From the IMG/VR virus record IMGVR_UViG_2562617087_000022: 23,278 nt of DNA. One strand, 5' to 3'. A model generated the notes under the pieces. That model was not told the origin of the DNA, made no database searches, and saw only the letters and a list, made by a program, of their open reading frames with translations. Positions 2,189 to 22,271 of this stretch are shown here, one piece after another. The position numbers and the translations under genes are program-made. The DNA is from a virus. Taxonomy: Duplodnaviria > Heunggongvirae > Uroviricota > Caudoviricetes. Numbering within the stretch: the first letter of the stretch is position 1; each line of letters opens with the position of its first letter.

Positions 2189-3076
2189 TCAGGCTGCCAG
2201 ATCATCGTTTCTGATGGAAGCATAATAAGCTTTTTCTGCTTCTGCCGGAGGGATATGACCCAGCCTTCCCAGCAATCGTCGATTGTTATACCAGTCCACC
2301 CACGTGAGTGTGGCCAGTTCCACTTCTGCACGGTTTTTCCAGCTCTTACGGTGTATTACCTCCGCTTTGTAAAGACCATTGATGCTCTCCGCCATCGCGT
2401 TGTCATACGAGTCACCTGTACTCCCTGTTGATGCCAGCAGTTTTGCTTCTTTTAGTCGCTCCGTATAGGCCAGTGATATATACTGAGAACCTTTATCACT
2501 GTGATGGACTGTGCCGGACGGCCGACGGGCCCACAACGCCTGCTCCAGTGCATCCAGCACGAATGTCGTTTCCATAGACGATGAGACTCGCCACCCCACG
2601 ATACATCCGGCAAACACATCAATGATGAACGCCACATAGACGAAGCCCTGCCATGTGCTGACGTAAGTAAAATCAGCCACCCACAGCTGGTCAGGACGTT
2701 CTGCCACGAACTGACGGTTTACGCGGTCGCCTGCGGAAACGGCTTTCCGGCTGACGGTAGTACGGACCTTTTTACCCCGGAGAACACCGGCAAGTCCCAT
2801 AACCGCCATGAGGCGCGCCACTGTACATCTGGCCACCCTGATACCTTCGCGTAACAACTGGCGCCAGACTTTACGCACACCGTACACCTGATGATTTTCA
2901 TCGTATACGCGCTGTATCTCTCTCTTCAGCCAGTCATCGCGCTGAGCACGGGCACTGCGTTTATCAGGATGATGTCGCTGTTGCTGACAGTGGTAATACG
3001 TTGACGGGGCAATATGCAGTTCACTGCATACCGGTCCGACCCCGTACTGCTCACGCAGCTTATCCAGCAGCGGCAT
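2189..3076 (-). CDS. IS629 transposase OrfB (DDE integrase domain)
   Basis: 295-aa [18 protein letters not shown]...; recognised as IS629/IS1203 OrfB; a second, truncated copy is at 12118..12795. Confidence 0.9.
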   Translation of the reverse strand: MPLLDKLREQYGVGPVCSELHIAPSTYYHCQQQRHHPDKRSARAQRDDWLKREIQRVYDENHQVYGVRKVWRQLLREGIRVARCTVARLMAVMGLAGVLRGKKVRTTVSRKAVSAGDRVNRQFVAERPDQLWVADFTYVSTWQGFVYVAFIIDVFAGCIVGWRVSSSMETTFVLDALEQALWARRPSGTVHHSDKGSQYISLAYTERLKEAKLLASTGSTGDSYDNAMAESINGLYKAEVIHRKSWKNRAEVELATLTWVDWYNNRRLLGRLGHIPPAEAEKAYYASIRNDDLAA

Positions 3077-3402
3077 TATTTTTTCCAGAGGCGGTCGAAC
3101 TCCGCCTTCGCAAAATAAGCGGAAGCCTGGCGAAGGATATCGTTACTGCGGCGCAGTTCACGATTTTCACGTTCCAGCTCTTTCAGACGCTGACGTTCAG
3201 CGGTGGTGAGTCCACCATCACCACTCCCGGTATCCCGCTCATGCTGACGAACCCACACACGCAGAGTCTCTGGTGTACAGCCAATCTTTGGGGCAATGGA
3301 ACAAATTGCCGCCCATTGTGAGTCATATTCGCCCTGACTTTCCAGAACCATACGAACTGCTCGTTGACGGACCTCGGGGGAAAAACGTGTATTTTTAGTC
3401 AT
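3076..3402 (-). CDS. IS629 OrfA (HTH transposase subunit)
   Basis: 108-aa [29 protein letters not shown]...; the copy at 11792..12118 differs by one residue. Confidence 0.9.
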
Positions 3403-3456
3403 CCTGTTTACCTCTTTCTCAGGGAGTTTAGTCTCCAGGATTCCCGGGGCGGTTCA

Positions 3457-4428
3457 CTGTCTGAGCGCGAGGAGATACGAGCTGGTTTGTCAGCCAAAAT
3501 GAGCATTCGTGCGATAGCTACTGCGCTGAATCGCAGTCCTTCGACGATCTCACGTGAAGTTCAGCGTAATCGGGGCAGACGCTATTACAAAGCTGTTGAT
3601 GCTAATAACCGAGCCAACAGAATGGCGAAAAGGCCAAAACCGTGCTTACTGGATCAAAATTTACCATTGCGAAAGCTTGTTCTGGAAAAGCTGGAGATGA
3701 AATGGTCTCCAGAGCAAATATCAGGATGGTTAAGGCGAACAAAACCACGTCAAAAAACGCTGCGAATATCACCTGAGACAATTTATAAAACGCTGTACTT
3801 TCGTAGCCGTGAAGCGCTACACCACCTGAATATACAGCATCTGCGACGGTCGCATAGCCTTCGCCATGGCAGGCGTCATACCCGCAAAGGCGAAAGAGGT
3901 ACGATTAACATAGTGAACGGAACACCAATTCACGAACGTTCCCGAAATATCGATAACAGACGCTCTCTAGGGCATTGGGAGGGCGATTTAGTCTCAGGTA
4001 CAAAAAACTCTCATATAGCCACACTTGTAGACCGAAAATCACGTTATACGATCATCCTCAGACTCAGGGGCAAAGATTCTGTCTCAGTAAATCAGGCTCT
4101 TACCGACAAATTCCTGAGTTTACCGTCAGAACTCAGAAAATCACTGACATGGGACAGAGGAATGGAACTGGCCAGACATCTAGAATTTACTGTCAGCACC
4201 GGCGTTAAAGTTTACTTCTGCGATCCTCAGAGTCCTTGGCAGCGGGGAACAAATGAGAACACAAATGGGCTAATTCGGCAGTACTTTCCTAAAAAGACAT
4301 GTCTTGCCCAATATACTCAACATGAACTAGATCTGGTTGCTGCTCAGCTAAACAACAGACCGAGAAAGACACTGAAGTTCAAAACACCGAAAGAGATAAT
4401 TGAAAGGGGTGTTGCATTGACAGATTGA
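3457..4428 (+). pseudogene. insI: IS30 transposase, C-terminal portion (disrupted by IS629)
   Basis: From LSEREEIRAGLSAKMSIRAIATALNRSPSTISREV... to ...KEIIERGVALTD stop; colinear with InsI after the IS629 insertion point. Confidence 0.88.
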
Positions 4429-4433
4429 ATCTA

Positions 4434-4703
4434 CAAGTGCCTTTTTTCTGTCAGCGGTTCTCCTTTCCAGCCAATGAGAACCGTCAGGCGCGCGCCCCGT
4501 GGCGGTAGCTGCAACTGACCATCTGCATCATCCAGCGTGATGGTGAGCTGGTCCGCCTCAAATCCCCGGTTGTCGGTCAGTGACAGGCTCATCAGGCGCT
4601 CTGCCACGCCTGACAGCGTTTTACCCTCCGCGAGAATATCAAAATCCGGCACTTTCACGTGGTCTGTGCCCTGACTGAGCAATTGCATGGTGGTGTCGGT
4701 CAT
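4434..4703 (-). pseudogene. Phage tail protein D-like (Phage_GPD family), N-terminal fragment
   Basis: RBS AGGGAGG then ATG at 4703; ...LSLTDNRGFEADQLTITLDDADGQLQLPPRGARLTVLIGWKG resembles the N-terminal motif of P2 gpD-type proteins; only about 90 codons remain; the stop codon is supplied by the IS30 terminus. Confidence 0.5.
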
Positions 4704-4860
4704 CTGTTCCCTCCCTGTGCGGCATGGTCGCATGTGCGTGCGGAGGGGGTTACTGCTTTTTGTTGTCGCCGTGGCGGGAGAACGGCGCAGGGGTGAGATT
4801 ACGCGCGTGGTGGGTGATGATTGTTGCCGAATCATTTAACGGATACAAGGGGCTGAAGCT

Positions 4861-6045
4861 ATGAGTGAAACTCGTTTTCATGGTGCCCGTGTTACGGAAA
4901 GTACCGACCTGGTAACAGCGATTAATGATGTTGATTCCAGTGTTATCGGTATCGTGGCAACGGCAGATGATGCGGACGCGGAGCTGTTCCCGCTGAACAA
5001 GCCCACACTGCTGACCCGCGTCAATGACGTGCTGGGAAAATGCGGGACTACGGGGACGCTTTATCGTGCGCTTAAGGCTATCGCAGACCAGGTGAGCACA
5101 AAAGTGATCGTCGTTCGCGTGGCTGAACACAAAGAAGAAGGCGGTAAGACGCAGGATCAACTGGTTATCGGTGGTTCTGAATCTGACGGCAGCTATACGG
5201 GGATGTATGCGCTGCTTGTTGCAGAGCAGGATGAAAGCATCGGATACCGTCCGCGTATTCTGGCCGCGCCGGAGCTGGACACGGAGGCGGTAACAAAATC
5301 CCTGTGCGTGATTGCGGGTAAACTGCGCGCGTTTGTGTATGCCACATGTCATGGTTGTAACACGATGGCTGAGGCGATTACCTACCGCCAGAAATTCAAC
5401 GAACGTGAGGTGATGCTCTTATGGCCTGACTTCATCGCCTACAACCTGAAAAGTGGCAAAAACGAAACGTTCCCCGCGCCTGCTTATGCGTGCGGCCTTC
5501 GTGCGTACATTGACCATGAGCAGGGCTGGCACAAATCGCTGTCCAACGTTCCGGTTAAAAATGTGCTTGGGATGTCGAGGCATGTGTTCTGGTCGTTGCA
5601 GGCCGAAGACAGTGATGCCAACAGCCTCAACAACAAAGAAATCACGACCATTATTCGTCGCAACGGGTTCCGCTTCTGGGGCAACCGCACACCGGAAACG
5701 AACGCCTACATCTTTGAGGTGTATACCCGAACCGCACAGGTGCTGGCTGATTCAATTGCGGAAGCGCAGTTTGAAACCATCGACAGTCCACTGACACCTG
5801 CGAACGTGAAGGATGTTATCAGTGCCATCAGGGCAAAACTGGATTCACTGGTTACTGCCGGGAAACTGATTGGCGCGGAGTGCTGGTATGACATCGAGGA
5901 TAACAGCACCACGAATTTACGTCAGGGGCGTGTGCGTATTCGCTACAAATATACGCCCGTTCCTCCGCTGGAAGACATGGAGCTTTACCAGTCGTTTACT
6001 GATGAATTCTTTGGTCCCGCATTTGCGGTGCTGGGAGGTGCCTGA
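4861..6045 (+). CDS. Contractile tail sheath protein (P2 FI-like)
   Basis: 394-aa ORF with RBS AAGGGG; recognisable similarity to the P2 FI sheath (e.g. ...LWPDF..., ...GFRFWGNRT..., ...YTPVPPLE...). Confidence 0.9.
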   Translation: MSETRFHGARVTESTDLVTAINDVDSSVIGIVATADDADAELFPLNKPTLLTRVNDVLGKCGTTGTLYRALKAIADQVSTKVIVVRVAEHKEEGGKTQDQLVIGGSESDGSYTGMYALLVAEQDESIGYRPRILAAPELDTEAVTKSLCVIAGKLRAFVYATCHGCNTMAEAITYRQKFNEREVMLLWPDFIAYNLKSGKNETFPAPAYACGLRAYIDHEQGWHKSLSNVPVKNVLGMSRHVFWSLQAEDSDANSLNNKEITTIIRRNGFRFWGNRTPETNAYIFEVYTRTAQVLADSIAEAQFETIDSPLTPANVKDVISAIRAKLDSLVTAGKLIGAECWYDIEDNSTTNLRQGRVRIRYKYTPVPPLEDMELYQSFTDEFFGPAFAVLGGA

Positions 6046-6557
6046 TGGCTGTACCAAAACATCTTCGCTTTTTTACGCTGTTTGTGGATGGTGAAAACGA
6101 AGTGGGTAAGGTGACGTCCGTCACCCTGCCTAAACTGACGCGCAAAACCGACAGCTACCGGGGTGGTGGCATGATGGGTGCGGTAAGTATTGACCTCGGC
6201 CTGGACGACTCCGCGCTTGATGCGAGCTTTGTCATGGGGGGCGCAGTTCGTGAGCTGTTCCTGAAGTATGGCGGCACGATTGACGGCACGCTACTGCGTT
6301 TTGCGGGGGAATACTACACCGATGATGAAAGCGACCTGTATGAAGTCGAAATGCGCGGACGTGTGACGGAAATTGATATGGGGGAAGCCAAACAGGGCGA
6401 AGCCACATCACACACTTACGCCATTAAAAACACCTACTACAAGCTGAGTGTTAACGATCGCCCGTTGTGGGAGATTGACCTGCTGAACTTCATTTACCGG
6501 AAGGACGGCAAGGACATTGTGCCCGATCGCATCCGTTCCGCGCTTGGGCTTGGCTGA
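6045..6557 (+). CDS. Tail tube protein (P2 FII-like)
   Basis: 170-aa ORF, start overlaps FI stop (TGATG); ...LPKLTRK...YRGGGM...LRFAG... pattern as in P2 FII. Confidence 0.88.
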   Translation: MAVPKHLRFFTLFVDGENEVGKVTSVTLPKLTRKTDSYRGGGMMGAVSIDLGLDDSALDASFVMGGAVRELFLKYGGTIDGTLLRFAGEYYTDDESDLYEVEMRGRVTEIDMGEAKQGEATSHTYAIKNTYYKLSVNDRPLWEIDLLNFIYRKDGKDIVPDRIRSALGLG

Positions 6558-6611
6558 TAAGTAATATGCAGGCGGCGCAGTGCGTCGCCTCTGACTGAAA
6601 GGAGTTTCCTG

Positions 6612-6977
6612 ATGAAAGAGACGAAAAACATCGATACCGAAAACACGGTAGTTACTGACACTGTGAAAGAAACCAGTGAGCGTGGTGTAAAACTTACCCA
6701 ACCAATTGAGCGAGGCGGCGAAAAAATCACGTATGTGGAGATCACCGGGGCTATTGAGCAGGCTGGATCTCTGCGAGATTTGTCGCTGTCTGATGTGCTG
6801 AATCTGAAAGCGGAATCCATGTTTACGCTGCTGTCACGCGTGACATCACCGCGACTGGATGAAGTGACGATCAAAAAAATGGCATCCCGTGACTTTATTC
6901 AGTTATGTGTGGTTGCCGTAAATTTTTTGAGCGGTGCGGACTCTGGCGGGAAGAACGAACAGGCGACGGAAGCCTGA
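6612..6977 (+). CDS. Tail assembly chaperone (P2 gpE-like)
   Basis: 121-aa ORF with RBS AAGGAG; position between tube and tape measure; contains a TTTTTTG slippery site near the 3' end. Confidence 0.75.
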   Translation: MKETKNIDTENTVVTDTVKETSERGVKLTQPIERGGEKITYVEITGAIEQAGSLRDLSLSDVLNLKAESMFTLLSRVTSPRLDEVTIKKMASRDFIQLCVVAVNFLSGADSGGKNEQATEA

Positions 6978-7141
6978 TCACGGTTGTGTGCTTTGAGCAC
7001 ATAGAAGACTTTGTGGCAGATATTGCCGTTATTTTTAACTGGTCGCCCGCCGAAATCTTCATGATGACGCCCGGCGAAGTGGTTAGCTGGCGTGAGCGGG
7101 CGGCACTTCGCAGCGGGAATGCAGACAATGAAGACTCTTGA
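6612..7141 (+). CDS. Tail assembly chaperone E+E' (predicted -1 frameshift extension product)
   Basis: The -1 frame ORF 6905..7141 overlaps the 3' end of E and ends inside the start of T, as in P2 E/E' (analogous to lambda G/GT). Confidence 0.55.
6923..6929 (+). promoter_or_regulatory. Putative -1 programmed ribosomal frameshift slippery heptamer T-TTT-TTG
   Basis: Heptamer in the E reading frame (codons AAT TTT TTG), upstream of the E stop and inside the overlapping -1 ORF. Confidence 0.5.
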
Positions 7142-9931
7142 TATCCGGGTCGCTTTCAGCGCCGTTGACAGGCTGACCCGACCTGCCGAAAACGCACGCC
7201 GCCTGATGGGGCAGTTTGGTGACTCCATCCAGCGAACGCAGGGGGCGATCAAAAATCTCGAGCGTCAGGCGCGATCATTTGAGCGCGCCCGCGACGCTGT
7301 CAGTAAAGCGGATGCTGGCATCGTGAAAGCACGACGCCAGCTTAACGCCCTTAATCAGTTACAACGCACGGGTACAGTGCTCAGCGAAAAACAACAAAAG
7401 CTGATGCAGCAGTTAAGCACCCGGCTTGAACGCCTGAATGAATCGCGCACACGGGAAATTCAGAAAATGAGGGAACTTGGCGGAGAGCTGAAACGCCACG
7501 GCATTTCCCTGACAGGCAGCGATAACACCATTCAGCAGGCCATCAGACGCACCGAACAATACAACAACCAGCTTGAACGCGAACGGCAGGCGCTTGCGCG
7601 TGTAACGCAGGCGCGTGAGCGGTATTCGCACGCGCAGGAAACCGCGGGAAAACTGAAAACAGGTGGTGCGCTGGCAATTGGTGCGGCAGCGGCGGGCGGC
7701 TATGCTGCCGGGCGTTTTTTGCAGCCTGCGATCGGGTTCGGCAAAGAGATGTCCCGCGTTCAGGCACTGACGCGAATCGACAAAAACAGCCCGCAGTTTA
7801 AGGCGCTGCGTGAGCAGGCGTTAAAACTTGCTGAAACACAGTTTACTGCGAGTGATGCCGCCAGTGGGCAGAGCTTTCTGGCAATGGCTGGTTTTACTCC
7901 GCAGGCCATTCAGGCCGCATTGCCCGGTGTTCTTAATATGGCGCTGGCAGGTGGCGTCGAACTCGGCGAGACGGCTGATATAGGCTCCAATATCCTCACA
8001 CAGTTCAACCTGACAGCCGATCAAATGGACCGGGTGGGCGATACGCTGACAGCAGCATTTACCCGGACCAATACTGATTTACGCGCGCTGGGCGAAACCA
8101 TGAAGTATACCGGTCCGGTTGCCGCAAAACTTGGTATCAGTCTTGAAGAAGCGGCGGCCATGGCCGGGATGCTTGCCAATAATGGTCTTCGCGGAAGCGA
8201 TGCTGGCACGGCCATGCGCGCAAGTCTGTCCCGCCTTGCATCACCGCCAAAAGCTGCGGCTGATGCACTGAAAGAGCTGGGGGTGTCAGTTGCTGACGCC
8301 AGAGGCAAAATGCGCCCGATGGAGGATGTGCTGCTTGATCTCTATAAGGCGACACAAAAATACGGACAGGTGGACCAGGTCTCCTTCTTCAAGGACATCG
8401 CCGGAGAAGAGGCGTTCGTTGGTTTGCAGACGCTTGTTGCGGCGGCTGGTTCAGGAGAGCTGCAAAAACTGACCAGAGAATTGCAGGGGGCAAGGGGAGA
8501 GGCCGATCGCGTCGCAAAAGTAATGGCTGATAATCTTGATGGGGACCTGAAAAATCTCGACAGCGCATGGGAAGGTCTTCGTATTCGCATCAGTGATCTG
8601 GTTGACGGTCCGCTGCGTTCTGTCACGCAGTGGCTCACGCGGGTGCTTGAAAAAATCACCTCGCTGGCGCAGGCCCATCCGGTACTGACGCGCCAGCTAC
8701 TGATAGCAGGCGGTGCGTTGCTGGCAATGACTGCAACGATTGGCTCGTTGTCGCTGGTTATTGGGGTGCTTTACGGGAAGCTGGCCACCCTGCGTCTTGG
8801 TTTTGACATTCTTACCCGGTCAATGAATGTCGTCAGGGTGTTACCTGCGCTATGGGGAATGGTGACGGGTTCCGTTTCTTTACTGGGAGGCGTTATCGGG
8901 GCGTTGTTCAGTCCGGTTGGTCTTATCGTGGCTGCGCTTGCCGGAGCTGCCGTTCTTATCTGGAAATACTGGGATCCTATCAGGGCTTTCTTTGCCGGGG
9001 TGTTCAGCGGGATTATGGAAAGGCTGACCCCGTTGCGCGACACCTTTGAACGGTTTGGCCCTGTTTTTGACGTAATCGGAAGCGGTTCAGCCAGGTGTTT
9101 AACTGGTTTAAATCGCTGCTGTCACCGATGGAGTCCAGCAAGGAAACGCTGGATAAATGTACCAGTGCTGGCGAGGTATTCGGTAACGTTCTTGGTGGTG
9201 CGTTACAGCTTGTTCTGACGCCTGCAAAAATGTTGCTGGATACGCTGGCGTGGATACTTGAAAAACTCGGTGTGCTTCCGGATGAAGCGGAAAGGGCGCG
9301 CAAGAAAATCGAAGACGCACAACGTGCGGCCATTCTTCAGGACAAGGTTGCTCTGTTTCAGGGAGACATTGCGAAAATCAATCCGCCGAAGTCTGCGGGA
9401 AATAGCAATGGCACCGGAGATGATAAACCCAAAGACAACAAACCTCTCACAGACAGCAATACCGGCACGCTACGCAGACTCAGCAAAATTGCTGATAACA
9501 CAGGTAAGCTGGTTGATGAGACAAAAAAACGCATTGGCCCCGGCGATATTGTCTTTAAGAACCTGCCCCGCGCACTTGCTGTTCGTGGGGAGTGGCAGGA
9601 GCGGAAGATTGCGCAGGTCAGTAAGCCTGCCCCCGCAATTAATATCACACCCGTGGTCCCGGCTCCGCTGCCTCCGGCGCTGGTCCCTGTTGTTGCGGCC
9701 AGCTCCCGCCCGGTGGTGGAGGCCATACGATCGCCAGTGGCATCAGTTCCTGCAACTTCCCGTAACCGGGAGCCTGTTGCCTCCGGATTTGGCGGTGAAA
9801 TTCATGTTCATCTGCATAACGTTGTTACGCAGAATCCCCGCGAACTGGCGAAACTGGTCGGCGAAATGGTCAGGGCAGAAATGGAACGGCGCGCCCGTGC
9901 CAGGCGTGGCAGTTTTTACGATAAAGATTGA
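7119..9931 (+). pseudogene. Tail tape measure protein (P2 gpT-like), apparently frameshifted near 9071-9095
   Basis: Coiled-coil and Gly/Ala-rich tape-measure-like sequence in frame 0 up to about 9080, then protein-like sequence continues in another frame (ORF 9095..9931); a 1-nt change in the short T run near 9086 would restore one roughly 937-aa ORF. Confidence 0.72.
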
Positions 9932-9937
9932 GGAGTC

Positions 9938-10432
9938 ATGGCCATGATGATGATCTACGGCATGTTTGTTTTTGAGCTGCGCACGTTGCCGCATCAGCAG
10001 TTACAGCAAAACAAAAGCTGGCGACATGTGAAAAATGAACGCGTTAACCGTTCAGCAAGCTGGCAGTATATCGGTGCAGGTGATGATCGCATCGTTCTTT
10101 CTGGTGTTCTTTATCCTGAGATTACTGGTGGCGAAGTGTCGCTGTCGTTGTTGACCACGCAGGCATATACAGGACGTCCTTGGCCTTTGATTGATGGCGT
10201 CGGGCAGATTTACGGCATGTATGTCCTGACCGGAACGAATACGACCCGCTCCGAGTTTGATCGCTACGGTAAGGCGAAAAAGATAGAATTTTCACTGACT
10301 CTTGAACGCTGTGATGAGGATTTGCGGGAGCGCCTGCAATCCTCATCGTTCAGCGATATGCTGTCCGGCTTCAAAGATAAGGTGACATCATCCCTTAATA
10401 GCGCGGCCAGCTCAGTTAAGGGGCTGCTCTGA
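9938..10432 (+). CDS. Tail protein (P2 gpU-like)
   Basis: 164-aa ORF with RBS GGAG; N-terminus MAMMMIYGMFVFELRT... and WPLIDG motif resemble P2 gpU; follows T. Confidence 0.8.
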   Translation: MAMMMIYGMFVFELRTLPHQQLQQNKSWRHVKNERVNRSASWQYIGAGDDRIVLSGVLYPEITGGEVSLSLLTTQAYTGRPWPLIDGVGQIYGMYVLTGTNTTRSEFDRYGKAKKIEFSLTLERCDEDLRERLQSSSFSDMLSGFKDKVTSSLNSAASSVKGLL

Positions 10433-10508
10433 TTTAACGTATGTCGCCAATTTCCTGATGAAGGTGACTGGCGACTTGCTGTTGTATGTCCTTCTCAGAA
10501 AATTGTTT

Positions 10509-10537
10509 TTGAATAACAAATAACAGGATTTTATAAT
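10509..10537 (+). promoter_or_regulatory. Putative sigma70 promoter of the acetyltransferase moron
   Basis: TTGAAT (10509-10514), 17-bp spacer, perfect TATAAT (10532-10537), in AT-rich DNA about 50 nt upstream of the RBS. Confidence 0.45.
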
Positions 10538-10588
10538 CTCTTAACCTTATAACATGTGTGGTCTGAAATAATAATTAAGGAGATTATC

Positions 10589-11161
10589 GTGCTATCTTAC
10601 TTAATGGCAATTCACTTTGTTTTATTTGGAAACTCTACTAATTTAAAAAACTTCTGGAAACATGAAGTAATTCGGCGGAAACGTATGGATATCTGGAGGC
10701 TTTTAAGAGAGAAAAAGCAGCGTAACCGGAATTTCCTTTTCTGGTGGCGGTTGGCTAACGAAATGTATATTAATGGTAATAAATTACATAAGAAAGCAGC
10801 CAAAAAGTTAAACAGTAAAATAATTAACAAGTTTGGTTGTGAAATAGGATTGGGCGCAAATATTGGAAAAGGGTTGACAATTCCCCATCATGCTGGAATT
10901 GTTGTTCATTTTGCTGTTGATGCGGGTGAAAATCTGGTATTACGACAGAATACTACCATTGGACAGATAGATGGTGATATGCCTAGTTCAAGAGTAAAAA
11001 TTGGTAGTAACGTTGATATCGGAGCTAATTGTTGCATCATTGGATTATCACGTAAAATTGGGGATAATGTAAAAATAGGTGCAATGTCTTTTATAAATAA
11101 AGATATACCATCAAACTGCACATATATAACTAAAAAGAGTGGTGTTGTATTGTATAAATAG
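10589..11161 (+). CDS. Hexapeptide-repeat O-acetyltransferase (CysE/WcaB-like, left-handed beta-helix)
   Basis: GTG start at 10589 behind a strong AAGGAG RBS (alternative ATG at 10604); ...GCEIGLGANIGKGLTIPHHAGIVVHFAVDAGENLVL...IGSNVDIGANCCIIG... hexapeptide repeats; AT-rich; own promoter and terminator. Confidence 0.75.
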   Translation: MLSYLMAIHFVLFGNSTNLKNFWKHEVIRRKRMDIWRLLREKKQRNRNFLFWWRLANEMYINGNKLHKKAAKKLNSKIINKFGCEIGLGANIGKGLTIPHHAGIVVHFAVDAGENLVLRQNTTIGQIDGDMPSSRVKIGSNVDIGANCCIIGLSRKIGDNVKIGAMSFINKDIPSNCTYITKKSGVVLYK

Positions 11162-11170
11162 AGTACATAA

Positions 11171-11209
11171 AGCCATCGATATTTCTGTCGATGGCTTTTT
11201 CTTTTTATT
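11171..11209. terminator. Bidirectional intrinsic terminator between convergent acetyltransferase and tfa genes
   Basis: Perfect 9-bp stem AGCCATCGA / TCGATGGCT with 8-nt loop, followed by TTTTCTTTTTATT on the + strand. Confidence 0.65.
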
Positions 11210-11737
11210 GTGGGGCGACTGGCCACTCAACATCCGCTGCTACTGTTGTATCAACACGATTCAACAATACCCGATATGTCTTCCATGCAGCCAGTAACGA
11301 TGCCTCTTCCTCCGTCGCAATATCCAAATCTACGGCATCCTGAAGTGGCGCAATATGCTCACTGGCTACCTGCATCAGGCTGTTTTTTGTTTCTTCTGCC
11401 TCCCGTACCCGAAACAGTTTTTCTGCTTCTGCATCTTTCGCCCAGGATGTGCCGTTCCACTTCTGACACTCTCCATCCGGCGACAACCAGGTAACATTTT
11501 CCGGTAACGGACCGAGTTCAGAAATAAATAACGCGTCGCCGGAAGCCACGTCATAAACCGTTTTACCCCGATGATCTTCAACGAGATGCCACGATGCCTC
11601 ATTACTGTTGAAAACAGCCACGAAGCCAGCCGGAATATCTGGCGGTGCAATATCGGTACTGTTTGCTGGCAGACCTGTATGAGGCGGAATGTATGCGTCA
11701 CCTTCACCAATAAATTCATTAGTTCCGGCCAGCAGAT
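11205..11737 (-). pseudogene. Tail fibre assembly protein (lambda Tfa / P2 G family), 5'-truncated by IS629
   Basis: Reading frame continues upstream of the listed ORF to the IS629 end: [51 protein letters not shown]...; about the first 16 codons are missing. Confidence 0.85.
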
Positions 11738-11791
11738 TGAACCGCCCCGGGAATCCTGGAGACTAAACTCCCTGAGAAAGAGGTAAACAGG

Positions 11792-12118
11792 ATGACTAAA
11801 AATACACGTTTTTCCCCCGAGGTCCGTCAACGGGCAGTCCGTATGGTTCTGGAAAGTCAGGGCGAATATGACTCACAATGGGCGGCAATTTGTTCCATTG
11901 CCCCAAAGATTGGCTGTACACCAGAGACTCTGCGTGTGTGGGTTCGTCAGCATGAGCGGGATACCGGGGGCGGTGATGGTGGACTCACCACCGCTGAACG
12001 TCAGCGTCTGAAAGAGCTGGAACGTGAAAATCGTGAACTGCGCCGCAGTAACGATATCCTTCGCCAGGCTTCCGCTTATTTTGCGAAGGCGGAGTTCGAC
12101 CGCCTCTGGAAAAAATAA
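11792..12118 (+). CDS. IS629 OrfA (second copy)
   Basis: 108-aa ORF, one substitution relative to the copy at 3076..3402. Confidence 0.85.
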
Positions 12119-12795
12119 TGCCGCTGCTGGATAAGCTGCGTGAGCAGTACGGGGTCGGACCGGTATGCAGTGAACTGCATATTGCCCCGTCAACGTATTA
12201 CCACTGTCAGCAACAGCGACATCATCCGGATAAACGCAGTGCCCGTGCGCAGCGCGATGACTGGCTGAAGAGAGAGATACAGCGCGTATACGATGAAAAT
12301 CATCAGGTGTACGGTGTGCGTAAAGTCTGGCGCCAGTTGTTACGCGAAGGTATCAGGGTGGCCAGATGTACAGTGGCGCGCCTCATGGCGGTTATGGGAC
12401 TTGCCGGTGTTCTCCGGGGTAAAAAGGTCCGTACTACCGTCAGCCGGAAAGCCGTTTCCGCAGGCGACCGCGTAAACCGTCAGTTCGTGGCAGAACGTCC
12501 TGACCAGCTGTGGGTGGCTGATTTTACTTACGTCAGCACATGGCAGGGCTTCGTCTATGTGGCGTTCATCATTGATGTGTTTTCCGGATGTATCGTGGGG
12601 TGGCGAGTCTCATCGTCTATGGAAACGACATTCGTGCTGGATGCACTGGAGCAGGCGTTGTGGGCCCGTCGGCCGTCCGGCACAGTCCATCACAGTGATA
12701 AAGGTTCTCAGTATGTATCACTGGCCTATACGGAGCGACTAAAAGAAGCAAAACTGCTGGCATCAACAGGGAGTACAGGTGACTCGTATGACAAT
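12118..12795 (+). pseudogene. IS629 OrfB, C-terminally truncated
   Basis: Matches the first OrfB copy through ...STGSTGDSYDN, then non-homologous codons and a stop; the DDE domain is incomplete. Confidence 0.85.
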
Positions 12796-12826
12796 GTATT
12801 TTATTAGTTCACATACAATTATCAGA

Positions 12827-13141
12827 TTATTCTGGGAATAAGGTCTGAATATTCTTTTTTATTTTATAAAAATTGCATTCAACTCCGCTAGGCTGATTAG
12901 CCTGGTATGTTTCCTTGATGCTAACGGTATTGAAGGGGAGGTTGTCCTCTGGCCATTCGGCCATCCAGTAGGCAAATGCTGGGTTGCGCTTTATGAGTGC
13001 TAGCCCAGCCAGAAAGGCCGCGCGTTGCGCGCGGCTGCGTTCGGAGGCTGGCAGGCTATCGAGGTAATTGCACGCCTCCTGTTCACTCTTGACGGCGGCG
13101 GGCTTCAGATAGAAACTTATCCGTCTGGTTGGTGTCGTCAT
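12827..13141 (-). CDS. parR: ParR/StbB-like ribbon-helix-helix centromere-binding protein
   Basis: 104-aa ORF 4 nt downstream of parM; N-terminal ...DSLPASERSRAQRAAFLAGLAL... resembles R1 ParR; the C-terminal third is AT-rich and divergent. Confidence 0.65.
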   Translation of the reverse strand: MTTPTRRISFYLKPAAVKSEQEACNYLDSLPASERSRAQRAAFLAGLALIKRNPAFAYWMAEWPEDNLPFNTVSIKETYQANQPSGVECNFYKIKKNIQTLFPE

Positions 13142-13145
13142 TGGT

Positions 13146-14105
13146 TTACTCCTTGTTCATTGCGTACAACCCATTAACCAGAGCAAACTGTGGCACCCCG
13201 TCCGCGATGAAAGTCGCATTAACTCCGCAGGCTTCGCGGATAGCGGTTGCCACAATCTCCGCCCCGCCACCGACAACCATCACCCGCCCGTAACCCGAAA
13301 AAACCGCCAGCGCGCGGATCACGCGTTGTTTCAGTGTTTCTTCCTTTTCACGAATAACCGCCATCAGGCTGGCGTAATGCGCGTCATTGTGGATGTGCTG
13401 GCGCAGCCAGGCTTCATCATGGCGATGTTCGATAATGGTATTGGCGATGTGGTGACTGGTGCGCATACCGTTAGTGGCCATCACCGACAGTACGGCATCG
13501 GCCATCAGAGAAACGCCTACGTGTGGATCGCAAAACACCTGGCTGATACCTGCCAGTTGCCCCTGAACCTTTGCCACATCCAGCGTGGTTCCGCCCAAAT
13601 CCACAATCAGCAGGGATTCAAACGGACTCATGTCAGCCAGTGCCTTAAAGCCAGCAGGAATGGATTCAGGCATAACCCGTACGTTACGGATAGTGAATGC
13701 TTCGCCGTTCTGGTACTCCACCGGGCGCATGACGTTCGCTTTTTTGCGGTTGATGTTGGCCATGTCCGGCTGTGCGTTTGTATCGAAATACTCGCTCAGT
13801 GGCAGGGTGACAACCACATCCACTTCCTGTGGTGTGATGCCTGATTTGACCAGCGCGTGATGAATGGCAATTACATTCACATCGCTGTACTGGTATTGCG
13901 TGTCGGTCGTCTGGACAAAGCGATCGCTGACCGGATCAAAACCATAGCGCACGCCATCAAGCATGTAGTTCGCGGGCTGCGTGCCACCGAATGGCGCAGA
14001 CCATTCCGACTTGAAGCTGTTCGGGCTGATGGCGTTGCGGCGTTCGCCGTTCTCAGTCCATGCCAGCTTGATGTTGGTGGAGCCGTCGTCGATACAAATT
14101 TTCAT
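13146..14105 (-). CDS. parM: ParM/StbA actin-like plasmid segregation ATPase
   Basis: 319-aa ORF; clear colinear similarity to R1 ParM (MK.CIDDGSTNIKL..., ...YSDVNVIAIHHAL..., ...VMPESIPAG..., ...DLGGTTLD..., ...GGGAEI...). Confidence 0.9.
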   Translation of the reverse strand: MKICIDDGSTNIKLAWTENGERRNAISPNSFKSEWSAPFGGTQPANYMLDGVRYGFDPVSDRFVQTTDTQYQYSDVNVIAIHHALVKSGITPQEVDVVVTLPLSEYFDTNAQPDMANINRKKANVMRPVEYQNGEAFTIRNVRVMPESIPAGFKALADMSPFESLLIVDLGGTTLDVAKVQGQLAGISQVFCDPHVGVSLMADAVLSVMATNGMRTSHHIANTIIEHRHDEAWLRQHIHNDAHYASLMAVIREKEETLKQRVIRALAVFSGYGRVMVVGGGAEIVATAIREACGVNATFIADGVPQFALVNGLYAMNKE

Positions 14106-14133: not shown

Positions 14134-14252
14134 TCGGTTACAGGATTTTTAAATCCCGCTTTTGCCTGTTTTGTGCGCGCTTCATATATCGCGGCGCGTT
14201 TTTTGCTCATTTACGGGATTTGTGAGTCCCGTTTCTGTCTGTTTTTTGTTTC
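14134..14252. repeat. Two imperfect direct repeats of about 36 bp (iteron-like), straddling the 3' end of gene A upstream of parM
   Basis: ACAGGATTTTTAAATCCCGCTTTTGCCTGTTTTGTG (14134-) and ACGGGATTTGTGAGTCCCGTTTCTGTCTGTTTTTTG (14213-); each has an internal short inverted repeat. Confidence 0.35.
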
Positions 14253-17004
14253 CACTGGTCAGGCCACCCCGCAGCAGGTCTGCTTTGCGGCTGGCGCGTT
14301 CAGTGGTTTCACTGATTCTCTGTGCGTGCTCTGCGTCGCGGATGGCGCGCAGCATGTCAGAAAGCACGGTAACGGGTGTTTTCATGGTGTTCTGGTCCTG
14401 CTGAAGTGTGGATGCCAGGCGTGCGGCGGCTTCAGGGTCTGATGCCCCCAGCTGTGCCAGATAGCTGGCGACCGGGTTATGGCGGATCTCCGTGCTGCTT
14501 ACGCCATGATTACGGCTCAGGCGCTGCCAGAGCTGCGTGATTCGGCTGTCCGGGCGGGTATCCGGTTTGCGTACAATTTCAAATCCCTGCGGTGCAATGA
14601 TGCTGCCGTCAACGTACAGACTGCCGCCCCGTAACAGGTGCTGCATCTGTTGTTCACCGATATGCAGGCCGAGAGATTCAGCAGACTCCCGCCATTCTTT
14701 AGCGAGTAATTCGTGGTTATCAGGCAAAGGCCGCTGCTGTTTGCGGCTCTGTGTCCAGCTCTGCATTTCATCACTGCTGTTTTTTGCCTGTTTGTCACGA
14801 AGCGAACGCATCAGCGCCCGGCGTTCGTGCCGTTTCAGTGAGCGCATCCATTCGTTCACGTCAACGCCGTCAGGAAGCTGCGGCCACGGTGCTGGCCGTT
14901 CTTCCGGCTGTTCTGTCCCGTTGTTGTCCGTTTCCTGTACACGGGGACAGTTATTGCCACGAGTCCAAGGGGCGGCAGGGCCGCCCTGAAGGTCAAAACC
15001 ATTTTCGCGGGCGCTGTCTTCTACTCCCGGTTTACGTCTTACCAGCTTCCAGTTATCCGGGTGCGTGCACACACGGGAGGATTCCCCGATGAGTGGTGAC
15101 CAGATCCCGTAAATCTGTACGCTCTGTTCGCCGTAATCGTTCAGCTCATCTGCGAGGTCGTAGGCGGTGCGAATCAGGTAGTCCTTGCGTGGAACAAGTA
15201 CGCCTCCCTGTTTCTCAATGTAGGTGGTAAAACATCCGGCATCAGCGGCAGCAAGAACCGCATCCATTGCGTCATCCTTCAGCCGTTGCGGGCCTTCCGG
15301 GTTGCGTGCCATCTGGCTGGCAAGGCGACGCAGTTCACGCCACACCTGACGGGAGGGGATGCCAAAGAACTGGAACTGGCGGACCCGGTGAAGGCGCGCC
15401 CAGCCAATGGCGCGTTCCACGCTCTCGGTCATTGATTTTCCGGTTTCGTGGTCAACGCGTGGTTTGCCTGTTTTCGGGTCGATGCCATCCACGGCGCGGC
15501 TGTCCAGGTTTTTTCCGATGTAGGTGGCGATGTAGCTGGTTGGCGTGCCTTTTGAGCCGTCGACATACTCCGCCTTAAAGCGCGGAGTAATATCATCGCC
15601 CAGCTCGTGACGATCTTCCTGAATGGCAATATCGCGGGTGTGGGACACAATGGTGTCGATTTCTTCCGGATGAGCAAAGACCATCATATGCCAGTGCACG
15701 GTGCCGTCATGGTGAGGCTCCACCGTGCGGATGCCATACCAGCGCAGGCCGTCGCGGTTCAGTTTCTTGCGGACCGCCGCAAAAAACGTGTTAACCAGGT
15801 AATCGCTGGAGTCGCGCATGGTGGCCCCGTTCCATTTGGGATTCGGATGACCGTTCTCTGTTGTAGCGTGGTATTTTGACGGGCAGGTGACAGTCAGAAA
15901 CACCGCTTTGTCGCCACGGGCTTCGGCCAGAAGTTCCAGCCCCTTCATGGTGGCCATCATTTCTGCCTTACGGTGAACCGGGTTACTTACTCCCGCGTAA
16001 TACACTGTCTCGAGATCAATCGTGAACCCGTCTTCGTTTTCCAGCATGAAACTTTTCAGGAAATCGCGTGTTTTCTCGCGCTGTGCGCGAAACTCGCTTA
16101 ACGCGTCCTGGCTCAGATAGGGCGATGTTTTTCTGGAAACCAGACAGGCGGCGCGGAGTTGTTCTTCTCTCCACTCGCAACGTAACAGCCACAGTTTGCG
16201 TTTCCACCATTCCGCACAGGTCAGGCGAAGGATTGCGCCCGGCAGCAGCTCCGTGTCCGGTTCGTTCCTCCGGTCTTTGTCTGTTGTCAGTGCGTCATAA
16301 TGTGGAGGCATGGCGTGCAGGTGTAACGCCATGCGGGCCAGCATCTGATACGCCTTCAGCGTTACATCCATGGTCAGTTCGCCATCGGTCGCGCCAAAGC
16401 CATCGCAGAGTTTTTCGAAGGTGCTGCTGAACATCGCCGCCGTCATGGTGGCCAGCGTCTGTATCTGGTGTTTGTTGAGCTGCGGCAGGTAAAGCAAATC
16501 GTCCAGGCGTTCGCGTCCGGCAAGGGAGCGATAACCCTGTGTCAGCCAGCGGTGATCGGTGCGCTCCAGACGTTCGAATATTTTGCGCAGGTTTCCGCGC
16601 GCGTAGCGTTCAGCCTGCCAGCTCTTTTTGCCTTTCTGACGATCGGCTTCCTGTTTTTTGCGCAGGAAGGAGAGGTGGCGAATAAGCGGATCGCGCAGAT
16701 AGGACGGCAGCAGGCGCAGCGAGGCCATGGCTTCATCCACCGCACCGCGTGCCTGTTTTCTGGCGTCTCCTGCCAGTGTGATGGTTTTGTCCTGTTTTTC
16801 CTGTGCGTCCAGGCTTTTATTAATCAGGTTGCCCAGCGGCGTTGCGGAGAACGCCGCATCAGCCATTTCCTGGCGGCGCTCGTTCTCTACCCGGTAGGCA
16901 TCCAGCCAGGAGGAAAGCGCGGATTCAGGAGCGGGGATCCCCGTTCCTTCACGCCCCACTGCGTGGCGCGGTTGTTGCCAGTCCCTGATGTACTCTGCCG
17001 TCAT
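14182..17004 (-). CDS. Rolling-circle replication initiation endonuclease (P2 gpA-like)
   Basis: 940-aa ORF; HUH-type motif ...EPHHDGTVHWHMMVF... and tyrosine motif ...TSYIATYIGKNL... typical of P2/186 A proteins. Confidence 0.9.
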   Translation of the reverse strand: MTAEYIRDWQQPRHAVGREGTGIPAPESALSSWLDAYRVENERRQEMADAAFSATPLGNLINKSLDAQEKQDKTITLAGDARKQARGAVDEAMASLRLLPSYLRDPLIRHLSFLRKKQEADRQKGKKSWQAERYARGNLRKIFERLERTDHRWLTQGYRSLAGRERLDDLLYLPQLNKHQIQTLATMTAAMFSSTFEKLCDGFGATDGELTMDVTLKAYQMLARMALHLHAMPPHYDALTTDKDRRNEPDTELLPGAILRLTCAEWWKRKLWLLRCEWREEQLRAACLVSRKTSPYLSQDALSEFRAQREKTRDFLKSFMLENEDGFTIDLETVYYAGVSNPVHRKAEMMATMKGLELLAEARGDKAVFLTVTCPSKYHATTENGHPNPKWNGATMRDSSDYLVNTFFAAVRKKLNRDGLRWYGIRTVEPHHDGTVHWHMMVFAHPEEIDTIVSHTRDIAIQEDRHELGDDITPRFKAEYVDGSKGTPTSYIATYIGKNLDSRAVDGIDPKTGKPRVDHETGKSMTESVERAIGWARLHRVRQFQFFGIPSRQVWRELRRLASQMARNPEGPQRLKDDAMDAVLAAADAGCFTTYIEKQGGVLVPRKDYLIRTAYDLADELNDYGEQSVQIYGIWSPLIGESSRVCTHPDNWKLVRRKPGVEDSARENGFDLQGGPAAPWTRGNNCPRVQETDNNGTEQPEERPAPWPQLPDGVDVNEWMRSLKRHERRALMRSLRDKQAKNSSDEMQSWTQSRKQQRPLPDNHELLAKEWRESAESLGLHIGEQQMQHLLRGGSLYVDGSIIAPQGFEIVRKPDTRPDSRITQLWQRLSRNHGVSSTEIRHNPVASYLAQLGASDPEAAARLASTLQQDQNTMKTPVTVLSDMLRAIRDAEHAQRISETTERASRKADLLRGGLTSGNKKQTETGLTNPVNEQKTRRDI

Positions 17005-21243: not shown

Positions 21244-21894
21244 ATGGCCGTCAACTCAAACGGTTCAAACAATCGCGTTGCTGGGCGTGATTTTCACGAA
21301 AAGAATATTCAGATAGAGCGATATGATGGTTCTCATACCGTCAATATCGCAATCCCTTCGAATAATGATGATGACGATCGCCCTTTGCTTAAGGCTCAGC
21401 GTAAGGAGCTAAATAGCTTGGTTGCTGCTATTGCAGAAGCTAGCAATACTGAAGCGTTTATTATTTGGCAAAAAGTACATGCGGAGATTGGTGTAGCTGG
21501 TATTGATGATATGACAGTAAATCAATATAAAACAGCGGAGAGTTTTCTGCATGCAATGCTTGAGCGATGTAAAGATCATGATGCCTGTAAGGCTCTTGTA
21601 AGTTTATTACTACGTAACAGTGAAGACTGTGGACTTCGACAAAAACTTCTGCGGTATTGCCATATCAATTTCGGTACAGGACGTTTAAACGATCTTACTC
21701 GTTCTCAGTTACAGTCTGCATTGTCGTGGTTAGAGCAACAATCGGCATCAAGCCACATAGAGAGTTCGACCTTACCAGAAGTCCGACTTCGTGCTTCAGA
21801 ATTAATCCGACTTTATCCAAAAGAAATAATATTCTTTATCTGCGTAGGGGTTTTGGTAGGCGGTGTCATTTCTAGGGCGTTTTTTAATTTGTAA
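21244..21894 (+). CDS. Hypothetical membrane-anchored protein (C-terminal TM helix), lysogeny-side cargo
   Basis: 216-aa ORF with strong GGGAGG RBS; AT-rich; C-terminal ...IIFFICVGVLVGGVISRAFFNL; N-terminus shares a motif with the repressor C-terminus. Confidence 0.6.
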   Translation: MAVNSNGSNNRVAGRDFHEKNIQIERYDGSHTVNIAIPSNNDDDDRPLLKAQRKELNSLVAAIAEASNTEAFIIWQKVHAEIGVAGIDDMTVNQYKTAESFLHAMLERCKDHDACKALVSLLLRNSEDCGLRQKLLRYCHINFGTGRLNDLTRSQLQSALSWLEQQSASSHIESSTLPEVRLRASELIRLYPKEIIFFICVGVLVGGVISRAFFNL

Positions 21895-21923
21895 TCTTAC
21901 TTGAGCTAAATTGAGGTAATGAT

Positions 21924-22271
21924 ATGAAAGTAAAAAAGGTTCAACTATTAGTTACTTTTTTATCTATGTTTTCTTTTTCCGCCGTCGCAATGCCTTTTAA
22001 AACTATTGAACGTGAGAGTTTCAATGGGGTATGGCCATTTAATACTGATGAGGTTCAATTACAGTGTCTTGATGGTAATCCTTATGTGATGAATTTTGAC
22101 GATAATAAGTTATATGCACTTACAGGTTTGGCTCGAATAAAAGGTAAAACATTTGGTGCGTTACCGTTAGATAACAATAATCCATTTTGGCTAGATAATG
22201 ATGCCGCCCCAGGGTTAAAAAAGAGTCTGGGGGATGTCACTAAGGCTGCATTTGATTTATGTGATAAGTAA
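21924..22271 (+). CDS. Hypothetical secreted/periplasmic protein (signal peptide)
   Basis: 115-aa ORF with GAGGT RBS; N-terminal MKVKKVQLLVTFLSMFSFSAVA; two Cys; AT-rich. Confidence 0.6.
   Translation: MKVKKVQLLVTFLSMFSFSAVAMPFKTIERESFNGVWPFNTDEVQLQCLDGNPYVMNFDDNKLYALTGLARIKGKTFGALPLDNNNPFWLDNDAAPGLKKSLGDVTKAAFDLCDK

Follow-up and report, generated by a model that had tools for sequence, protein, structure and literature searches.

The stretch of DNA analysed here (hereafter the window, 23.3 kb; IMG/VR record IMGVR_UViG_2562617087_000022) is a P2-like prophage remnant of the Sp13 type from Escherichia coli O157:H7. Between the tail gene U and a tail-fibre assembly gene (tfa), it carries a gene that the databases name serine O-acetyltransferase. 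Judged from its active-site residues, this name is a misannotation, which our analysis corrects. The product is most likely a soluble, acetyl-CoA-dependent O-acetyltransferase of the CysE/WcaB branch of the left-handed beta-helix superfamily, and it belongs to a family whose genes recur convergent with phage tail-fibre genes. An envelope glycan is its probable acceptor, and gene context leads us to favour tentatively the core of the lipopolysaccharide (LPS). A first-pass annotation of the same sequence had proposed a CysE/WcaB-like beta-helix acetyltransferase encoded by a self-contained AT-rich moron, and this proposal is supported by the fold, the base composition and the signals of the gene.

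Active site of the prophage acetyltransferase

The protein is a left-handed beta-helix with an N-terminal helical domain, as in CysE. Its residues His100 and Glu85 align with the catalytic pair His158/Asp143 of CysE; the chemistry of an acetyl-CoA-dependent O-acetylation, with the histidine as putative general base, is supported at this level. The enzyme is probably a trimer. The residues by which CysE binds serine and cysteine are not kept: there is no D92-P93 (DP) loop, Pro99 occupies the position of D157, and Ser134-Arg135 that of R192-H193. Across the prophage protein and ten family members, the D157 position is filled by Pro, Leu, Ile, Gly or Ala and the R192-H193 positions are variable. 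When these proteins and WcaB are aligned jointly, only the catalytic acid (Glu85) and the histidine (His100) are retained. The C-terminal CysK-binding tail, including its Ile end, is absent as well, the protein ending in GVVLYK shortly past the helix.

Distant relatives were used as a control set. They came from a broad scan of genome contigs, which returned mainly distant true serine acetyltransferases and was used for this purpose only, and they were checked for their gene neighbours. The neighbour was a cysteinyl-tRNA synthetase gene in 15 cases; others were genes of CysK-type pyridoxal-phosphate enzymes, Rrf2 regulators and phosphoadenosine-phosphosulfate (PAPS) reductase. Because of these cysteine-gene neighbours, the relatives are considered genuine serine acetyltransferases. 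D92-P93, D157 and R192-H193 are kept in 11 of the 12 that were compared, the remaining one (L033) having neither D92-P93 nor D157, and G184 of CysE is also kept by the control set in the joint alignment.

The prophage protein scores 62.3 bits with the cysE model TIGR01172 (cut-off 210.65) and 54.1 bits with the WcaB model TIGR04016 (cut-off 194.65), and its gene lies in a prophage, not in a wca cluster. No cys genes were found next to family members in the gene neighbourhoods examined. Active-site residues, tail, model scores and gene context thus all speak against a canonical serine acetyltransferase, which was rejected, and the name is unsupported since the binding residues, the DP loop and the CysK tail are missing. 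The first-pass annotation had considered that the best homologues might be housekeeping cysE-type enzymes with conserved serine-binding residues; they are not of this kind, and the residues are absent. A xenobiotic (Vat/CatB) or a maltose/galactoside acetyltransferase was rejected too, the matches to Maa and LacA being weak and no xenobiotic acetyltransferase model appearing among the NCBIfam hits.

The nearest functional comparison is with WcaB (and WcaF) of the colanic acid pathway of E. coli. Like the prophage protein, these are small soluble left-handed beta-helices with a short helical N-terminus, and WcaB has the same E...H catalytic pair and likewise lacks the serine-binding residues of CysE. 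However, identity to WcaB is only 31-35% and the model score stands far below the cut-off. The prophage protein also has about 30 extra N-terminal residues that contain the family motif FWWRLANE, and its family is carried by phages and plasmids, never in a wca cluster.

Family, selection and mosaic alleles

The profile of phrog_2154 ("unknown function") matches residues 13-190 of the protein with 292 bits (E 2.9e-87). Among 1.84 billion cluster representatives searched with a profile, only 75 sequences were recovered at E <= 1e-30, against 8,871 at 1e-10, the latter corresponding to the wider superfamily. Scores within the family range from 92 to 230 bits, against 46-72 bits for WcaB and 41-60 bits for CysE. 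One protein of 944 aa (P0121) contains six separate stretches that match the family profile, which could reflect a tandem fusion or else an artefact of the assembly.

Of 5426 complete E. coli genomes, 530 carry at least 80% of the gene, which is annotated there as intact and located on chromosomes and on P1-like plasmids of about 90-100 kb. The open reading frame (ORF) is unbroken in hundreds of O157 genomes, with 100% identity among them. Unsaturated pairwise comparisons across alleles gave dN/dS values of 0.11-0.19, and the family is, as judged from these comparisons, under purifying selection. A decayed pseudogene is ruled out by the intact ORFs and the dN/dS values; decay among the homologues, which the first-pass annotation had raised as a counter-indication, was likewise not what we found. 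The family genes have a GC content of 29-43% in every host, including the copy in a waa operon of Leminorella. This host-independent low GC echoes the "unameliorated" composition described for neaT.

The acetyltransferase gene and tfa travel as one cassette, which shows 88-100% nucleotide identity to P1-like plasmids over about 10712-11731 of the window. The gene itself is a mosaic. We compared window positions 10510-11290 with positions 5900-6700 of L004, one of four intact P2-like prophages (L004-L007) from other E. coli in which the allele is 71% identical. The promoter, both gene ends, the terminator and the 3' end of tfa are 95-97% identical, whereas the gene centre (about 10810-11047), encoding the catalytic coils, has only 47-62% identity; in the protein, the variable segment covers about residues 75-155. 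This pattern suggests that a putative substrate-facing segment has been exchanged by recombination. A member from Leminorella is 57% identical to the protein of the Citrobacter phage phiNP and 54% identical to that of a Xenorhabdus prophage, so the copies in core clusters and those in phages form one family.

Genomic contexts of the family

Family members are convergent with tail-fibre or tfa genes in P2-like prophages, in the P1-like JL22 and Ro157c2YLVW, in phiNP and in the Hafnia phage yong2, and this is also the case in most of the more divergent viral contigs (45-86% identity to the window protein). In phage JL22, inverted repeats of 602 nt, 99% complementary, at positions 5401-6002 and 10263-10864 of contig L002 bracket the genes S-U-sat-tfa; this places the acetyltransferase gene of P1-like phage-plasmids inside the tail-fibre segment inverted by cin, so that both flip together. 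The authors of the JL22 study called the presence of the gene in the phage unexplained.

Several members are linked to LPS-core genes. In Leminorella grimontii, the member closes the series waaG-waaP-waaB-waaI-waaY-waaZ and is convergent with waaL. The assignments of WaaP, WaaB, WaaI and WaaL are above the NCBIfam cut-offs, that of WaaZ is above the cut-off of TIGR04437 and that of WaaY above the Pfam cut-off; "WaaG" is a generic GT4 glycosyltransferase named by position only. In Halopseudomonas oceani and in a Pseudomonas genome, the member abuts hldE-msbA, with a Kdo/WaaP-family kinase gene nearby. In the Xenorhabdus prophage, a GT25 glycosyltransferase gene lies behind the member in the same direction, convergent with the tail fibre, and in two viral contigs (L170 and L171) an HtrL_YibB gene faces the family member. 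Phages P1 and P2 adsorb to the LPS core. In phiNP, sat is convergent with tfa and the tail fibre, and the receptor of this phage is the outer-core residue GlcII of the LPS, as established by waaO knockout and complementation (PMC6456863).

Other locations are more diverse. The window copy and most other members lie outside waa and hldE-msbA clusters. Some members lie at prophage ends, adjoining integrase, hok/gef or Abi genes. Those on plasmids include one on the EAF plasmid of enteropathogenic E. coli, after bfp/per, and one on a ParA/umuDC plasmid. Lone chromosomal insertions were found in Obesumbacterium, Rahnella, Orbus, Pantoea (in an island) and Intestinirhabdus, the last one next to ugd and arn.

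Moron site and expression signals

Phage P2 has the genes V W J I H G, followed by a terminator, by fun(Z) in the opposite orientation and by FI FII E T U D ogr. In the window and in L004-L007 the order is D (-), FI FII E E' T U (+), acetyltransferase (+) and tfa/G H I J W V (-), most of the G-to-V part being missing from the window itself. The FI-U block is thus inverted relative to P2 in this prophage lineage and separated from D (window 4431-10432; L004-L007). With the block inverted, two late operons converge on the moron site. A rearrangement specific to O157 is ruled out as the cause of the adjacency to U, since the same layout is found in the intact P2-like prophages from other E. coli. 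The placement between U and a convergent tfa given by the first-pass annotation agrees with the Pfam matches of both neighbours (Table 1). Its assignment to the G-FI interval has to be amended, as the gene lies between U and G; what stands is the position and orientation relative to G, which are those of fun(Z) in P2.

Wiles et al. named the G-proximal site "moron position 2" and described there, in strain CFT073, an AT-rich and oppositely oriented acyltransferase gene (PMC3573123). The window gene shows the same features: it is a lone accessory gene, convergent with G, with its own signals and an atypical composition, the other flank being U and not FI. Both fun(Z) of P2 and neaT of CFT073 are likewise single AT-rich accessory genes convergent with G that have their own signals. 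Their products differ from the window protein, fun(Z) encoding an unrelated protein of 528 aa and NeaT being a membrane enzyme of the Acyl_transf_3 type (PF01757), with another fold and topology.

Neighbouring variation was observed in related prophages. The O157 strain PV15-279 retains tfa, a macro-domain gene, H, I, J, W and V downstream of the acetyltransferase gene; the macro-domain protein (300 aa; Pfam Macro, 68 bits; contig L001, 15493-16395) is encoded between H and tfa in the tail-fibre operon. In L004 (6617-8244), the acetyltransferase gene is accompanied by a tfa fragment, a moron encoding an S-adenosylmethionine-dependent methyltransferase (222 aa) and a full tfa, which suggests that morons may have been inserted serially via recombination within tfa.

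The GC content is 0.34-0.37 over positions 10401-11200, as against 0.50-0.58 in the flanks on both sides, and the gene itself has 34% GC, in agreement with the lower GC that had been noted. The mechanical ORF spans 10556-11161 (+). The RefSeq start, a GTG at 10589, agrees with the homologues, and the P1-like alleles have an ATG at this position. The strong ribosome-binding site and the GTG start of the first-pass annotation are confirmed. The near-consensus sigma-70 promoter announced by the first-pass annotation is present, with a predicted start near 10544, but such a match alone is not above chance, with four consensus matches in the region for 3.4 expected in shuffled sequences. The promoter-like site is base-for-base identical in the L004 allele and has a weaker -10 box in L163 and L154. 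Promoter, ribosome-binding site and start are all conserved in the allele whose coding centre has diverged.

The hairpin behind the gene has a folding energy of -18.3 kcal/mol (z -5.8) on the + strand, where it is followed by U5CU5, and of -16.1 kcal/mol (z -5.4) on the - strand, where only a weak U tract follows. The term "bidirectional" applied to this terminator is therefore true of the hairpin itself, and the canonical U-run serves only the acetyltransferase gene. Between U and the acetyltransferase gene, the hairpin considered as a terminator (10408-10426) is no better than those of shuffled sequences. As no credible terminator follows U, read-through from the late F operon is possible.

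Table 1. Features of the acetyltransferase locus (window coordinates)
Feature	Position	Strand	Remarks
gpU tail gene, upstream neighbour	9938..10432	+	Pfam Phage_P2_GpU, 131 bits
Sigma-70 promoter-like site	10509..10537	+	TTGAAT-17 nt-TATAAT; 10/12 positions match; function putative
Shine-Dalgarno sequence	10578..10583	+	AAGGAG, 5 nt before GTG; read directly; kept in all P2-like alleles
Acetyltransferase gene, 190 aa	10589..11161	+	RefSeq WP_000954203.1; phrog_2154; left-handed beta-helix; catalytic His100, Glu85
13-bp hairpin common to both convergent genes	11169..11208 (hairpin 11169-11198)	both
Tail-fibre assembly gene (P2 G / lambda Tfa type)	11205..~11734	-	Pfam Caudo_TAP, 138 bits; RefSeq; convergent with the acetyltransferase gene; 5' end lost to an IS3-family fragment

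The prophage remnant

The window is 100% identical to the chromosome of E. coli O157:H7 (TW14359, EC4115 and many others), where the prophage is flanked by pgsA with tRNA-Gly/Cys/Leu on one side and by yecA on the other. In the literature on the Sakai strain, Sp13 is reported without most morphogenetic genes (PMC2669165). The order given by RefSeq is an IS3 element, an IS30 fragment, a truncated gpD (-), FI, FII, E, E', a frameshifted T and U (+), then "serine O-acetyltransferase" (+), tfa (-) cut by an IS3 fragment, StbB, ParM, gpA, early genes and the integrase. Decay is visible at three places: the IS3 element and the IS30 fragment adjoin the truncated gpD (2189-4835), the tape-measure gene T is frameshifted (7092-9931), and an IS3-family fragment (11735-12807) has taken away the 5' part of tfa together with all that lay from H back to Q. 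None of this surrounding decay has reached the acetyltransferase gene.

A plasmid-partition pair, ParM/StbB (12827-14105, -), adjoins the replication gene gpA (14182-17004). This site corresponds to the gpA-gpQ accessory hotspot of P2, in which partition systems were also found by Rousset et al., and the pair may bear on the reported replication of excised Sp13. Two more AT-rich stretches (GC 0.33-0.38) are located at the prophage ends (1200-1800 and 21244-22271). They contain small ORFs without Pfam match, to which RefSeq adds a DUF2511 gene adjoining the integrase, and are possibly other morons.

Proposed function and alternative explanations

That the gene product acts on an envelope glycan in general is probable. 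More specifically, we tentatively propose, on the basis of gene context, that it O-acetylates the nascent LPS core for lysogenic conversion or receptor masking. The associations with waa, hldE-msbA, GT25 and HtrL genes point to the LPS core as target, and the orphan, host-independent distribution speaks for an acceptor that is conserved, not for an O-unit specific to a serotype. The extension of this proposal to the whole family is conceivable but more doubtful: its members would be phage-disseminated LPS-core O-acetyltransferases, which core-binding myoviruses (P1-, P2- and phiNP-like) would carry beside their tail-fibre genes so as to mask their own receptor.

According to this model, a moron made up of a single gene and its promoter, ribosome-binding site and terminator, inserted at the G-proximal site of a P2-like prophage, would be expressed in the lysogen from its own promoter, and possibly also by read-through from the late F operon (FI-U). 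A soluble beta-helix enzyme would reach a glycan only during its assembly at the cytoplasmic face, and this one would work on the cytoplasmic side of the inner membrane, where it would O-acetylate a sugar of the core while lipid A-core still awaits export by MsbA. It would in this respect resemble WcaB and WcaF, which, according to the K-12 product names, act on lipid-linked (undecaprenyl-pyrophosphate) intermediates of colanic acid. The acetylated core would alter both the receptor for LPS-binding tail fibres (P1, P2 and phiNP type) and the antigenic surface. The outcome would be a lysogenic conversion in which related phages are excluded and host interactions are possibly altered.

Prophage enzymes with comparable roles are known. 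NeuO of prophage CUS-3 (E. coli K1) is likewise a beta-helix O-acetyltransferase, whose gene adjoins that of the receptor-binding tail protein; it is reported to modify the receptor glycan of the phage itself, polysialic acid (PMC3046976). The NeuO structure 3jqy has no sequence-level match to the window protein, and a NeuO-like phase variation was rejected as no tandem repeats (a heptanucleotide in NeuO) were found in 10400-11300. The Oac/GtrC-type O-acetyltransferases of Sf6, D3 and Salmonella phages share the proposed role, namely a prophage-encoded acetylation of LPS that alters phage adsorption and antigenicity. Unlike the window enzyme, which is soluble and cytoplasmic with the core as its likely target, they are integral-membrane acyltransferase-3 proteins that act on the O-antigen at the periplasmic side.

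Several observations weigh against the LPS-core proposal. Only three of the six close chromosomal homologues are in LPS clusters, and most members are orphans with uninformative neighbours or are plasmid-borne. The linkage with tail-fibre genes could merely reflect a permissive recombination site. A gene of 34% GC may be silenced by H-NS. Our literature search found no functional study of the protein or of its substrate or expression, two papers noting the gene in passing as of unknown purpose, and a shallow search found no report of O-acetyl groups in the R3 core of O157. The putative modification of a surface polysaccharide or phage receptor put forward by the first-pass annotation gains independent support from gene context (LPS-core clusters of three genera, GT25/HtrL, phiNP).

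Among the other explanations, the target could be an envelope glycan built on undecaprenyl phosphate, such as O-antigen, colanic acid, enterobacterial common antigen or capsule, instead of the LPS core. We regard this as unlikely. The hosts of close alleles differ widely in their O-antigens and capsules (O157, O55, O111, Citrobacter, Salmonella, Hafnia and Xenorhabdus), no examined member is located in an O-antigen or capsule cluster, and the WcaB model score (54 bits for a cut-off of 195) does not favour colanic acid.

A non-glycan target (small molecule, antibiotic, nucleotide signal or protein), in a single-gene anti-phage defence, counter-defence or resistance function, has a still smaller chance of being correct. 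The reference occupant of the P2 locus, fun(Z), blocks T5, neighbours elsewhere include an Abi gene, hicAB and hok/gef, and the accessory loci of P2 are rich in defence genes (PMC9122126, PMC13586616). However, the described P2 defence hotspot is gpA-gpQ, which is another locus, chromosomal members are found in LPS-core operons, and the NCBIfam hits contain no Vat/CatB-type model. A known defence system was rejected, no PADLOC-DB family being matched at E <= 0.1.

It is improbable that the gene is a silent or decaying passenger of a dead prophage, without current function in O157:H7. The heavy decay of the prophage (T frameshifted, D and tfa truncated, insertion sequences), the common silencing of AT-rich DNA and the chance-level promoter match would fit such a passenger, but not the identity of the intact ORF among O157 genomes, the low dN/dS across alleles or the conservation of promoter, ribosome-binding site and terminator in a divergent allele.

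Finally, a genuine serine O-acetyltransferase, acting as an auxiliary metabolic gene that raises the O-acetylserine/cysteine supply or triggers CysB signalling for phage or host, is very improbable: RefSeq and phage records carry the name, the best PDB sequence and fold matches are serine acetyltransferases, and the nearest non-family relatives include short Firmicute and archaeal CysE genes adjoining cysS and cysK, but D92-P93, D157, R192-H193 and the C-terminal Ile tail are missing, the cysE model gives 62 bits for a cut-off of 211, and family members never adjoin cys genes.

Significance

Phage-borne surface acetyltransferases were already known. What is new here is the demonstration of the misannotation, the definition of the family and of its recurrent cassette, and a proposed link with the LPS core. 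The gene is present in about one tenth of complete E. coli genomes (essentially all O157:H7, and also O55:H7, O111 and P1-like phage-plasmids), where it is uniformly and wrongly labelled as an enzyme of cysteine biosynthesis. The correction of this annotation and the clean one-gene cassette stand regardless of function.

If the core is acetylated, the gene would be a factor of phage host range that is widespread and has been overlooked, with relevance to phage therapy and typing, and an effect on LPS antigenicity and on innate immune recognition would be possible in Shiga-toxin-producing E. coli. A cytoplasmic, core-directed mechanism would be added to lysogenic conversion, until now represented mainly by membrane O-antigen acetylases and glucosylases, and this enzyme would be the first core-directed, non-membrane enzyme of this kind. 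E. coli O157:H7, and about 10% of sequenced E. coli, would then possess an unrecognised acetylated core, of the R3 type in O157:H7.
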